Shown: positions 1,576 to 4,537 of the stretch, in pieces
Numbering within the stretch: position 1 is the stretch's first letter
How the letters are laid out: the number at the start of each line of letters is the position of its first letter
IMG/VR virus record: IMGVR_UViG_2698536677_000017
DNA from: a virus
Lineage: Duplodnaviria; Heunggongvirae; Uroviricota; Caudoviricetes
DNA: 5,474 nt
Reading direction: 5' to 3' (one strand)
Program-made: the position numbers and the translations under genes
The notes under the pieces: generated by a model
Told to the model about the DNA's origin: nothing
Databases searched by the model: none
The model's input: the letters and a program-made list of their open reading frames with translations, nothing else

Positions 1576-2538
1576 TCACCCCCTGAATCCCGGCGGTATT
1601 TCAGTGTCCGGTTCAGAAATGTGATTCACGCAACGCTGCGCAGGCGAACGCCCCAGGCGGATAACCAGTTCATCCCATTTTTCCCGGAGTTTTGCCGGAC
1701 TCATGATGTTTTTTACCCAGAACGAATCCCGCTGGAGACGCCCAAACATTTCACAAATTTGTCTGTGAGTTCTGCCATCCAGCATCCGCATTGTGCGAAC
1801 GTCATTGGCCCATGCTGTCCAGTTGGGTTCTTTCGGTCTAGTGATCTCGCCATCATAGCTGGCCGCCTGCTCGTAAAGACTCACGATTCGTCCCCAGATC
1901 CACTGTGCGCACACCAAATCTTCCTGACTTCCCCACTGGCGTTTTTTCGCACTGAACACAACCGCGTCAGGGTGTCGGGTTAAAAAATCCTGTTCAGCCG
2001 TCTGCGGGTCCGGTTGCGAAGCGTCCGGACAAGAAGATCTTTTATCTGACGGATCAGGTTTTAATACTGACGGATCGGGGTCAATCATCGCCCCCCTAAT
2101 CGGCAGTTTTTTATCAACAGTTGATCCATCAAAATTTGACGGGTCAACCGTTGAGGGGTCAATATTTGACGGGTCAACTGTTAACGGGTCATTTTTTGCC
2201 GGGCTAATTTTTCTTTTCGGTTTATATGACTCACGCGCCGCCGCCGCAGCTGCTTCGAGTTTTTCCACATTAAGCCGATAGATATTGCTTACATTACGCC
2301 CACCGACCTTACGCTCTTCCTTCGTCAGCCAGCCCTCTTTCGCCAGTTCTGCAATAGCCGATTTCACTGTGGATTCACTTCTTGCACCGATCTGACGCCG
2401 GATAGTTTCAATGGCAGGCCATGACACGCCCTCGTCATTGCTGTAGTCTGCAAGACGGGCCATAACCGCCACCCTGGATAAGATCATGCCGGTGAAGGCG
2501 CACCCTTCCCAGACAAGACCATGAAGCTTGCTGCTCAT
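1576..2538 (-). CDS. Replication initiator, lambda O-like / YdaU-like (N-terminal HTH DNA-binding domain, origin iterons inside the gene)
   Basis: Long minus-strand ORF. Start chosen as ATG (complement of 2536-2538) with a GGGGG SD-like run 4 nt upstream; an alternative GTG start lies at 2553. The N-terminus (MARLADYSNDEGVSWPAIETIRRQIGARSESTVKSAIAELAKEGWL) is HTH-like; the middle encodes DP(S/L)xxDPSTVD repeats matching the DNA iterons. Its stop is 6 nt before the DnaC-like start. Confidence 0.8.
   Translation of the reverse strand: MSSKLHGLVWEGCAFTGMILSRVAVMARLADYSNDEGVSWPAIETIRRQIGARSESTVKSAIAELAKEGWLTKEERKVGGRNVSNIYRLNVEKLEAAAAAARESYKPKRKISPAKNDPLTVDPSNIDPSTVDPSNFDGSTVDKKLPIRGAMIDPDPSVLKPDPSDKRSSCPDASQPDPQTAEQDFLTRHPDAVVFSAKKRQWGSQEDLVCAQWIWGRIVSLYEQAASYDGEITRPKEPNWTAWANDVRTMRMLDGRTHRQICEMFGRLQRDSFWVKNIMSPAKLREKWDELVIRLGRSPAQRCVNHISEPDTEIPPGFRG
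2047..2195. repeat. Iteron array (putative replication origin) inside the O-like gene, followed by an AT-rich tract to about 2230
   Basis: Seen in sequence: near-palindromic core TGACGG(A/G)TC(A) at 2047, 2068, 2137 and 2167, with variants TGAGGGGTC at 2152, TAACGGGTC at 2182 and TTGATCCATC near 2121. The last four copies sit at a regular 15-bp spacing. Immediately downstream is ATTTTTTGCCGGGCTAATTTTTCTTTTCGGTTTATATGA (about 2191-2230). Confidence 0.55.
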
Positions 2539-2560: not shown

Positions 2561-2986
2561 TTAGTGCATCACCACAGCATTCCCTGCCGGGCCGCCGCGA
2601 TTCATCTGGTCATACAAAACAACCGCTGACGCAACAAAATCATCGACATCCTTCACCAGCCGATCCCTCCGTTCGACGATCTCACGGTAATATTCAGAAC
2701 TGTGGCTGCGCATACGGGCCACCAGCAAAGGCGGCATCGCCTTTTCGATCGCCGGTAACAGAGCCTGCATTTTTTTAACAGCATCAGGGGTGTCTTTCTC
2801 TACCCAGCGGAAAATTTTCTGGGTATTACGGGCCAGGGCTTCCGGATGGCTGTCGTCATACAGTTCCGGGAACGTCATTCCCAGCTCGAAATACGCTTTG
2901 GTAATTTTCGCAGCCGGTACTTTTTCGCCGTCCGGATGCGCCCAGACATTCATCGCCATGCGGATGTGTTCATGCTTGATTTTCAT
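2561..2986 (-). CDS. YdaT-like protein (Rac-type early gene; described either as a CII-like regulator or as a putative toxin)
   Basis: 141-aa ORF beginning MKIKHEHI..., ATG start with GGAG 7 nt upstream. Its start overlaps the stop of the upstream Cro-like gene by 4 bp (ATGA). Position (cro-like, then this gene, then O-like, then DnaC-like) matches the Rac ydaS-ydaT-ydaU-ydaV order. Family call is from memory. Confidence 0.65.
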   Translation of the reverse strand: MKIKHEHIRMAMNVWAHPDGEKVPAAKITKAYFELGMTFPELYDDSHPEALARNTQKIFRWVEKDTPDAVKKMQALLPAIEKAMPPLLVARMRSHSSEYYREIVERRDRLVKDVDDFVASAVVLYDQMNRGGPAGNAVVMH

Positions 2987-3285
2987 GAATCAACTCCATC
3001 AGATAAGCATGTACTACAATCACCTTCAGCATGAACTACATGTGTTTGCCCCAAACGAATGCCGCTCGCATACTCAGGCCAAATAAGCTCCCAATCATGG
3101 GGTCGTAGCTCCGCCCTACTTACTTGGCCTTCCGTCGCAGATTCGATCATAAGGGCGCGGGTTGGAGATATAGCTGTTCGTCCAGACGCCATTTGCGATA
3201 AGTAAGATGGCGATACACCAAGTCTGGCCGCGAATTTCTTAGCATCACCAACCCTTAATGATTTAATAAACTCTTTTAATGTCAT
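2983..3285 (-). CDS. Cro-like HTH regulator, YdaS family
   Basis: 100-aa ORF, ATG (complement of 3283-3285) with GAGGAAGG SD just upstream. The motif LGVSPSYLSQMASGRTAISPTRALMIESATEGQVSRAELRPHDW is typical of the YdaS/Cro-like HTH family. First gene transcribed leftward from the divergent operator region. Confidence 0.8.
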   Translation of the reverse strand: MTLKEFIKSLRVGDAKKFAARLGVSPSYLSQMASGRTAISPTRALMIESATEGQVSRAELRPHDWELIWPEYASGIRLGQTHVVHAEGDCSTCLSDGVDS

Positions 3286-3382
3286 ACCTTCCTCGGTTTA
3301 GTGTTTTTTTGCGAGTTTAGTGTTTAATAAACCATTAAGTCAAGTATTTGCTTGTTTAGTGATTACTAAAGATAATTACCAC
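3286..3382. promoter_or_regulatory. Divergent operator/promoter region (OR-like) between the Cro-like gene and the repressor gene
   Basis: Seen in sequence: three copies of the half-site GTTTAGT at 3296, 3315 and 3354. Two sit in palindromic contexts: AGTTTAGT-gttt-AATAAACC (3314-3333) and TTTAGT-gatt-ACTAAA (3355-3370). Candidate rightward promoter: -35 TTGCTT (3348-3353), 17-bp spacer, -10 GATAAT (3371-3376), placing the transcription start at or next to the repressor ATG (3383). Candidate leftward promoter: -35 TTGACT (complement of 3338-3343), -10 TAAACT (complement of 3314-3319), 18-bp spacer. Confidence 0.6.
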
Positions 3383-3754
3383 ATGCAAAAAAAAGAAATT
3401 CGCCGTTTACGTCTCAAGGAGTGGTTTAAAGATAAAACTCTGCCACCCAAAGAGAAGAGCTACCTATCTCAACTAATGAGTGGGAGAGCCTCGTTTGGAG
3501 AAAAGGCTGCCAGAAGAATAGAGCAAACATACGGGATGCCGGAAGGGTATCTGGATGCGGAATACGCAGAACAACCGGGGGTTTCTCCACCACATGCAGG
3601 GTTAACGTCTAATCAACTGGAATTATTGCAGATTTTTTCAGCCTTCCCTGAGGATGAGCAACGCCAGATAATCAGCGAGTTAAAGCAGAAAAAAGAATCA
3701 ATGGAAGATCTCATAGCGAGATGGATTGCGGCGCAAAAATGCCGCCGCGCCTGA
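3383..3754 (+). CDS. Prophage repressor, short HTH protein, DicA/RacR-like (no S24 peptidase domain)
   Basis: ATG at 3383 chosen over the GTG at 3320 given in the ORF track, because the upstream extension would cover the operator/promoter sequences. The N-terminal segment EKSYLSQLMSGRASFGEKAARRIEQTYGMPEGYLD is HTH-like; the C-terminal segment LTSNQLELLQIFSAFPEDEQRQI resembles the DicA C-terminal region as I recall it. No SD precedes the start and the -10 lies 7 nt upstream, so the mRNA is probably leaderless. Confidence 0.75.
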   Translation: MQKKEIRRLRLKEWFKDKTLPPKEKSYLSQLMSGRASFGEKAARRIEQTYGMPEGYLDAEYAEQPGVSPPHAGLTSNQLELLQIFSAFPEDEQRQIISELKQKKESMEDLIARWIAAQKCRRA

Positions 3755-3967: not shown

Positions 3968-4246
3968 ATGTTACCCGTGTTATGGCTTGAAAGCGCAGAT
4001 ACCGACCTAGATGATATAACTAGTTATATTGCTCGTTTCGACATAGATGCGGCTGAACGCTTATGGCAGCGATTAAGGGGTTGTGTGCTGCCGTTATCCG
4101 AACATCCGTATTTATACCCACCAAGCGACAGAGTACCTGGCTTGCGTGAGATTGTAGCCCACCCTAACTATATAATTCTATACCGCGTAACAACATCAAG
4201 CGTTGAAGTAGTAAACGTGATCCACGCAAGACGCCAGTTTCCCTAA
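3968..4246 (+). CDS. Type II toxin, ParE/RelE superfamily
   Basis: 92-aa ORF (MLPVLWLESADTDLDDITSYIARFDIDAAERLWQRLRGCVLPLSEHPYLYPPSDRVPGLREIVAHPNYIILYRVTTSSVEVVNVIHARRQFP). The pattern W..A..DL..I..YI...D...A, then PG.RE......YII.YRV, then V.VV.V.H.RR at the C-terminus is characteristic of ParE/RelE toxins. ATG at 3968, 1 nt after the antitoxin stop. The ORF-track start at 3872 would overlap the antitoxin and is rejected. Confidence 0.8.
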   Translation: MLPVLWLESADTDLDDITSYIARFDIDAAERLWQRLRGCVLPLSEHPYLYPPSDRVPGLREIVAHPNYIILYRVTTSSVEVVNVIHARRQFP

Positions 4247-4265
4247 CTTTCACTACCAATAGAAA

Positions 4266-4310
4266 CATAACAACCGCAACGACTTTATCAAAAGCGTTGT
4301 GTTTGTTATG
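4266..4310 (+). terminator. Long hairpin downstream of the toxin gene (terminator candidate, or a regulatory palindrome)
   Basis: Seen in sequence: CATAACAACCGCAACG (4266-4281) pairs with CGTTGTGTTTGTTATG (4295-4310) across a 13-nt loop, giving a 16-bp stem with one mismatch and one G-U pair. A T-rich run (GTTTAGTTTTT, 4319-4329) follows, but only after a 9-nt gap, so it is not a textbook intrinsic terminator. Confidence 0.4.
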
Positions 4311-4316
4311 CCCCGC

Positions 4317-4358
4317 GGTTTAGTTTTTACTTGACTTAAGTTTAATGTTTATTAAACT
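4317..4358 (+). promoter_or_regulatory. OL-like operator plus rightward promoter candidate (PL analogue) for the ydfA-like operon
   Basis: Seen in sequence: GGTTTAGT (4317-4324) is identical to the OR copy at 3295-3302. A perfect palindrome AGTTTAAT-gttt-ATTAAACT (4339-4358) closely resembles the OR site at 3314-3333. Promoter candidate: -35 TTGACT (4331-4336), 16-bp spacer, -10 TAAACT (4353-4358), with the -10 inside the palindrome. Confidence 0.5.
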
Positions 4359-4537
4359 AAAAATACCAACCCACCCCGCCCCACAGAACGCAGGGAAATA
4401 CTTCGAGTTACCCGGCAGTGGTCAGGGGTTAAGTAGCCAGCCCGAGGCGTATGAACATGACGGCGGGAACACTTTGTATAACAGCGCAGCAGGTTTTTTG
4501 TTCCGCTACCCCGGCGTTAAGGGGAAATGAGGTCAAC

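Follow-up and report, generated by a model that had tools for sequence, protein, structure and literature searches.

A ydaS-ydaT gene pair in the immunity region of a CP-933P/Sp12-type Escherichia coli prophage very probably constitutes a Cro-like/CII-like regulatory module

Introduction

Do the two overlapping genes that face the repressor gene in the immunity region of a lambdoid prophage encode a toxin-antitoxin pair, or do they encode regulators that resemble Cro and CII? This question is raised by a 5,474-nucleotide stretch of viral DNA (Caudoviricetes; IMG/VR record IMGVR_UViG_2698536677_000017), the whole of which is referred to here as the window. A preliminary description had regarded the pair as a divergent copy of ydaS-ydaT for which either function might apply. 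For the CP-933P system of E. coli O157:H7, the choice between the two has been settled (mBio 2021; Acta Cryst D 2023; NAR 2025), with YdaS and YdaT recognized as Cro/CII-like regulators (PMC8630535, PMC9986795). As we report below, the gene pair in the window is real and was correctly located, but it represents this already known system. Judged by their kinship to the CP-933P proteins, Cro-like YdaS and CII-like YdaT very probably form a regulatory module and not a toxin-antitoxin pair.

Results

The overlapping ydaS and ydaT genes

Both genes are located on the minus strand. The coding regions were taken from the list of open reading frames, and the two short signals were read from the sequence:

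2983..3285, minus strand: ydaS, 100 aa, ATG start, Cro-like HTH regulator
2561..2986, minus strand: ydaT, 141 aa, ATG start, CII-like transcriptional activator
2983..2986, minus strand: ATGA, overlap of the ydaS stop and the ydaT start
2994..2997, minus strand: GGAG, Shine-Dalgarno sequence of ydaT within the ydaS coding sequence

The plus strand reads tcat at 2983-2986, which corresponds to ATGA on the coding strand; the ATG of ydaT occupies positions 2986-2984 and the TGA of ydaS positions 2985-2983. The overlapping minus-strand pair is hence present exactly as first described. GGAG (2997-2994) is separated from the ydaT start codon by 7 nt. A 4-bp overlap of the same type is also annotated in the three other loci that we fetched, namely an O157:H7 genome (L002), a Rac-type locus (L003) and a locus in which the same ydaT is fused to a different cro and a LexA-type cI (L004); the overlap is therefore a conserved feature and not a product of chance. 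Since ydaT possesses its own GGAG/ATG start signal, lying inside ydaS and overlapping its stop codon, the two proteins are probably made by translational coupling.

A Pfam search assigned the 141-aa protein to the family YdaT_toxin (PF06254) with 37.3 bits against a curated cut-off of 21, so that the proposed relationship to YdaT holds in a profile search. The 100-aa protein was assigned to YdaS_toxin (PF15943; 46.5 bits, cut-off 30) and additionally to HTH_3 (29.8 bits, cut-off 23). PHROGs places YdaT in phrog_163, 'CII-like transcriptional activator' (E 1.9e-46, residues 1-128), and YdaS in phrog_35, 'transcriptional repressor', and homologues of YdaT are annotated as 'activator protein cII' in phage records. 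The toxin names used by Pfam ('Bacterial toxin ydaT/YdaS') and PGAP contrast with these CII-like designations. No NCBIfam model matched YdaT, and the NCBIfam matches of YdaS to HigA and of the repressor PaaR2 to DicA remained below the curated cut-offs.

Sequence matches in the PDB connect both proteins to solved structures. YdaT is identical to CP-933P YdaT (8bt1, entitled 'YdaT_toxin domain-containing protein') at 137 of the 140 aligned residues (2-141; E 2.6e-91) and also matches a crystallized homologue from an O6 strain (3c4r; E 3.4e-80). YdaS is identical at 99 of 100 residues to 8c7k ('Phage antirepressor protein Cro') and matches a truncated construct, 8co2. The crystal structure of CP-933P YdaT consists of a POU-like HTH domain and a long helix that assembles into a four-helix-bundle tetramer; a protein comprising only residues 1-96 no longer binds DNA (PMC9986795). 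This is not the CII-like fold that the preliminary description had considered for the 141-aa protein. Transfer of the fold from 8bt1, a solved homologue, by sequence identity predicts that the YdaT protein of the window possesses the POU-like HTH domain, the long alpha2-alpha3 loop and the C-terminal tetramerizing helix; the conserved R60 of the recognition helix and the hydrophobic core residues I103, L110, V111, V114, F117, V118 and A121 are all retained.

Relationship of the window to prophage CP-933P

We compared the window with the O157:H7 genome, and differences are given below with the window residue first. YdaT carries three substitutions (V62L, E63D and K71E, CP-933P YdaT thus having L, D and E at these positions), YdaS a single one (T92A) and PaaR2 likewise a single one (V67G; window position 3582, codon 67), while PaaA2 and ParE2 do not differ at all. 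This amounts to 99% identity for YdaS and 98% for YdaT. At the DNA level, ydaS-ydaT shows six differences, the 97-bp paaR2-ydaS intergenic region is 100% identical, and the segment comprising ydaT, ydaS and the operators is 99.3% identical in the O157:H7 copies. Gene order, ATGA overlap, 97-bp operator region, the YdaT operator OM, PaaA2 and ParE2 are all found in CP-933P (Sp12) as in the window, and each of the primers used for CP-933P constructs (12 of 12; supplement of PMC8630535) matches the window exactly. Because of this near-identity, the copy is not a divergent one, as had been assumed, but in essence the CP-933P/Sp12 immunity region.

Of the three YdaT substitutions, two (V62 and E63) fall at the C-terminal end of recognition helix alpha3 (Ala50-Asp63); both changes are conservative, and both residues are shared by the O6 homologue 3c4r. 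The variants found in the window (V62/E63/K71 in YdaT, T92 in YdaS) would be expected to behave as the CP-933P proteins do. That the V62/E63/K71 allele might have gained host targets or toxicity, as known for the YdaT protein of the Rac prophage, is a smaller possibility.

The window as a whole and the chromosomes of ST131-type and related E. coli strains show 99.9% identity. At least 80% of it is held by 457 of 5426 complete genomes, and at least 80% of the ydaT-ydaS-operator segment by 589 genomes; at an identity of at least 99%, this segment is matched in 533 complete E. coli genome records (best place per record). Sequence comparison thus identifies the window as the immunity region of a lambdoid E. 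coli prophage of the CP-933P/Sp12 type, with its closest relatives in ST131-type genomes. The flanking prophage is unlike CP-933P: the nearest genomes are of the ST131 type, its DnaC-like gene is frameshifted, and other genes are found past the promoter PL.

Escherichia phage Evi shares the ydaT-to-parE2 stretch with the window at 95.6% identity. The paaA2 gene of this phage is recorded only as encoding a hypothetical protein, and no coding sequence is annotated at approximately 5397-5675 of the Evi record (L005; LR597642.1), where the match to the window spans the position of parE2. This segment is probably an unannotated ParE toxin gene.

The repressor operon and the replication genes

The neighborhood of the gene pair comprises the following genes:

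3383..3754, plus strand: paaR2, CI-like repressor, 123 aa, starting with MQKKE as in PMC8630535
3775..3966, plus strand: paaA2, antitoxin, 63 aa (Pfam PaaA2, PF21217, E 1e-19)
3968..4246, plus strand: parE2, toxin, 92 aa (Pfam ParE_toxin, E 1.9e-16)
1576..2538, minus strand: lambda O-like replication initiator, in the same operon downstream of ydaT (coding sequence of L001, the best-matching genome; Pfam HTH_36)

According to the gene map, the rightward operon begins with ydaS, which diverges from the repressor gene and shares its operator region. The placement of a Cro-like and a YdaT-like gene at the head of the early-right operon, opposite the repressor and then a ParE gene, is consequently borne out by the map and by Pfam. 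PaaR2 falls into phrog_5736 ('transcriptional regulator') and matches the DicA family weakly; its gene is leaderless in CP-933P (PMC8630535). The parE2 gene had been taken for a separate target beyond the repressor, but it belongs to the operon of the repressor itself, paaR2-paaA2-parE2, in which it comes third, after the antitoxin gene. ParE2 is neutralized by PaaA2 and not by the repressor.

Inside the O-like gene, five overlapping 30-nt copies with 15-bp spacing are present at 2114-2203 and a 33-nt inverted repeat at 2116-2182; they encode DPSxxDPSxVD protein repeats. The repeats at 2114-2203 look like origin iterons within an initiator gene, as in lambda O/ori.

Further downstream, 31 bp (GTTTTACCGCTGAACACAAAATTCGTGCACT; L001 13272-13302) are missing from the window at 1271/1272. 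The deletion shifts the frame of a DnaC/IstB-like ATP-binding gene just N-terminal of the GTGKN P-loop and splits it into two minus-strand genes, 854-1240 and 1225-1569, with open reading frames of 128 and 114 aa, respectively. All 25 of the best-matching genomes listed align to the window in at least two pieces, and the break in the best match is this 31-bp gap; the deletion is therefore either private to this strain or an assembly error. If genuine, it would disable the replication module of the prophage. With its DnaC-like gene frameshifted, the prophage is probably defective, and its switch may have ceased to govern the choice between lysis and lysogeny.

Operators and promoters

Primer mapping, a promoter scan and motif searches placed the following control elements in the window:

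2976..2993, either strand: high-affinity YdaT operator OM ('YdaT-box'), TTGATTTTCATGAATCAA, centered on the ATGA overlap
2958..3077, plus strand: equivalent of the PRE933P reporter fragment, reading towards paaR2 and antisense to ydaS (F-PRE/R-PRE primers)
3015..3020, plus strand: TACAAT, candidate -10 hexamer of a PRE-type promoter, the sole TAnnnT on the plus strand of the fragment
3286..3382, either strand: divergent control region of 97 bp with the promoters PR and PRM, PaaR2/YdaS operators and GTTTAGT repeats
3343..3314, minus strand: PR hexamers TTGACT/TAAACT (promoter scan)
3310-3383: PR/PRM fragment (exact primer mapping)
4247..4364, plus strand: equivalent of the PL933P promoter/operator fragment (exact primer mapping), with one SNP relative to O157:H7
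4331-4358, plus strand: PL hexamers TTGACT/TAAACT (promoter scan)

The high-affinity operator OM of CP-933P has been defined by motif and footprint as 5'-TTGATTN6AATCAA-3' (PMC9986795), and the YdaT-box of Rac has likewise been established by motif and footprint (PMC11879457). TTGATTN6AATCAA has one perfect match in the window (2976-2993) and none in 200 shuffled sequences. The ATGA overlap falls into its 6-bp spacer, so that the operator coincides with the end of ydaS (codons …GVDS*) and the beginning of ydaT (codons MKIK…). We also considered that the palindrome at the junction might form an RNA hairpin gating ydaT translation; this idea was rejected, the segment 3020..2950 folding with -14.8 kcal/mol against a shuffle mean of -14.2 kcal/mol (z = -0.22).

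The paaR2-ydaS region of CP-933P has been footprinted (PMC8630535), and both OM and the OR operators are perfectly conserved between the window and O157:H7. The hexamers of PR and PL are alike, in agreement with the CP-933P report (PMC8630535). One C/T SNP relative to O157:H7, at 4311, is found in the PL fragment upstream of its operators.

F-PRE maps to 2958-2977 and R-PRE to 3059-3077, both exactly (supplement of PMC8630535). The fragment that they delimit differs from its CP-933P counterpart by one T/C SNP, at 3012, 3 nt upstream of the candidate -10 hexamer. A sigma-70 promoter scan that required both hexamers found no plus-strand site within 2958-3077, which is consistent with an activator-dependent promoter. 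If TACAAT (3015-3020) is the -10 element of PRE, the center of OM would lie at about -42.5, where activators that replace the -35 element typically bind, and YdaT may act from there. A different geometry is given in PMC9986795, where OM is located 'downstream from' the promoter and holds an alternative start; the placement of PRE933P relative to OM is inconsistent among the published accounts.

The YdaS tail (codons 77-100, window 2983-3057) is absent from the truncated crystallization construct 8co2 (residues 1-76). Since the same DNA carries the PRE fragment and the YdaT operator, this tail may be constrained more by DNA signals than by protein function.

Comparison with Rac and lambda

The Rac prophage of E. 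coli K-12 resembles the window in possessing a repressor gene, a divergent cro-like gene and a ydaT gene that overlaps it by 4 bp. It differs in lacking paaA2-parE2. The YdaT-box at the Rac junction is nearly the same as that of the window, and from it a reverse promoter within ydaS is activated; the YdaT proteins of Rac and CP-933P cross-activate, and both stimulate this YdaT-box promoter equally in vivo (PMC11879457). YdaT of the Rac-type locus is only 30% identical to that of the window, and sequence comparison detected no similarity between its Cro-like partner and YdaS. Moreover, the racR-ydaS intergenic region and the promoter of the host gene rcsA are additional binding sites of Rac YdaT, which is toxic; none of this applies to CP-933P YdaT (PMC11879457). 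A bicistronic ydaS-ydaT message has been shown for Rac, and the two genes are described as an operon for CP-933P.

A 40-bp block at the junction (2963-3002) comprises the Shine-Dalgarno sequence, the ATGA overlap with the YdaT box around it, and ydaT codons 1-8 (MKIKHEHI). Rac-type prophages and several phages retain it at about 95% identity, although their flanking genes are highly divergent. Homology to the window ends at 2991-3002 in many E. coli genomes and phages, ydaT then being joined to other cro and cI genes. Such breakpoints are the classic mosaicism of lambdoid phages, the operator here marking a module boundary. Because the block is so well conserved despite divergent YdaT and unrelated Cro-like proteins, and because breakpoints cluster within it, it may serve as a linker for the exchange of immunity modules among heteroimmune lambdoid phages. 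The common box would in addition enable YdaT of one prophage to act on the repressor promoter of another in the same cell, and vice versa. We regard this joint reading as rather unlikely.

The genes of the window occupy the same map positions as those of lambda, with cI followed by the divergent cro-cII-O genes, and competition of a Cro-like protein with the repressor at common operators is a feature of both lambda and the CP-933P-type switch. YdaT is like lambda CII in being a tetrameric activator that acts on a reverse promoter located between or inside cro and cII and directed towards the repressor gene. It is a 222-symmetric tetramer with POU-like HTH domains whose target is an inverted repeat; that of CII is the direct repeat TTGCN6TTGC (PMC9986795). 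No CII chain was found among the PDB sequence matches of YdaT with E<=1. YdaT therefore works like CII without being a member of the lambda CII family. CP-933P further differs from lambda in having four operator repeats and not three, a repressor, PaaR2, that is devoid of an autocleavage domain, and no known analogue of CIII (PMC8630535).

Proposed mechanism

The data available for CP-933P allow us to outline how the pair would operate in the window. PR, located on the minus strand here, would drive one message covering ydaS, ydaT and the O-like and DnaC-like genes. YdaS, as the Cro analogue, would contend with PaaR2, the CI analogue, at the operators of the 97-bp region and thereby set up a bistable switch. 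This competition has been demonstrated for the CP-933P proteins: both repress PR, PRM and PL, low levels of PaaR2 activate PRM, high levels repress its own operon, and two heritable expression states (bistability) result, one or the other of which is lost in stop mutants of paaR2 or ydaS, as seen in growing cultures by flow cytometry and microscopy (PMC8630535).

YdaT, translated from its own GGAG/ATG over the ydaS stop, would assemble into a tetramer and, as a functional analogue of CII, bind the palindrome TTGATTTTCATGAATCAA across the ydaS/ydaT junction. Binding would turn on the silent reverse promoter of the PRE type (2958-3077) and direct transcription antisense through ydaS to paaR2-paaA2-parE2. 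PR, PRM and PL do not respond to CP-933P YdaT, whereas PRE933P is silent unless activated by it (PMC8630535); by analogy with this 98% identical protein and with Rac YdaT, the YdaT protein of the window should bind the box and activate the reverse promoter. Since CP-933P YdaT 'does not seem to affect' PaaR2 levels (PMC11879457), the output of PRE is less clear than that of CII action in lambda.

Discussion

The names under which the two proteins are filed, Pfam 'YdaT_toxin' and 'YdaS_toxin' and PGAP 'toxin YdaT family protein', invite a reading as a type II toxin-antitoxin pair, or as two toxins, silenced by the repressor. YdaS indeed matches HigA antitoxins, albeit weakly and below threshold, and toxicity is known for induced YdaS and YdaT of Rac, where racR is an essential gene (PMC5700377, PMC5700373, PMC11879457). 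We consider this reading hardly credible here, as CP-933P YdaT, 98% identical to that of the window, exhibits no toxicity (PMC8630535) and forms a tetramer that binds DNA sequence-specifically at a mapped operator (PMC9986795). The toxicity of Rac YdaT operates through the rcsA promoter, which is activated by the Rac protein only (PMC11879457). Growth defects do follow prolonged overexpression of PaaR2 and YdaS, but they resemble those caused by other overexpressed prophage regulators (PMC8630535). A neutralizing interaction between YdaS and YdaT has not been reported; the two proteins occupy separate DNA sites, the intergenic operators and OM, respectively, and their genes follow the order and position of lambda cro-cII-O. 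Since the pair in the window is 98-99% identical to the crystallized and tested CP-933P pair, the question of toxin-antitoxin versus Cro/CII is answered for the window as well.

The Cro-like/CII-like reading also bears on the proposal that the repressor restrains two growth-inhibitory functions, YdaS/YdaT and ParE2, whose release would make its loss lethal. We judge this quite improbable. It draws on the essentiality of racR in Rac, which is relieved by deletion of ydaST (PMC11879457), on repression of PR and PL by PaaR2, which at high level also represses its own operon, and on the slower growth that follows prolonged overexpression of YdaS (PMC8630535). However, paaR2 stop mutants of the cloned CP-933P immunity region, carried on a reporter plasmid and read by flow cytometry and microscopy, grew in the ydaST-on state, as did about nine tenths of the wild-type reporter cells; the fraction of SOS-positive cells did not differ between the two states or from that of the controls, and no SOS induction by ParE2 was seen (PMC8630535). 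Together with the absence of YdaT toxicity, these results do not sustain the proposal. Derepression would raise PaaA2 along with ParE2, as parE2 is co-transcribed with its antitoxin gene; were derepression in the native prophage harmful, PL-driven genes such as dicB (downstream in L001) would be the likelier cause. It might finally be argued that the pair is a decaying, non-functional remnant, given that the adjoining DnaC-like gene carries the 31-bp frameshifting deletion and that CP-933P itself has been called cryptic (PMC9986795). Both open reading frames are intact, though, with just one substitution in YdaS and three in YdaT, OM and OR are perfectly conserved, and the CP-933P proteins work both in vitro and in vivo; with the module retained at an identity of at least 99% in 533 complete E. 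coli genome records, and at least 80% of it in 589 genomes, we hold decay to be very improbable.

The window thus reveals no new biology; what it calls for is a correction of annotation. The toxin label is out of date for proteins of the CP-933P type, which regulate a bistable prophage switch; a ParE toxin-antitoxin addiction module is likewise under the control of this switch. Several hundred complete E. coli genomes, ST131 clinical strains among them, carry the same regulatory module at an identity of at least 99%, and correct naming therefore avoids false counts of toxin-antitoxin systems.
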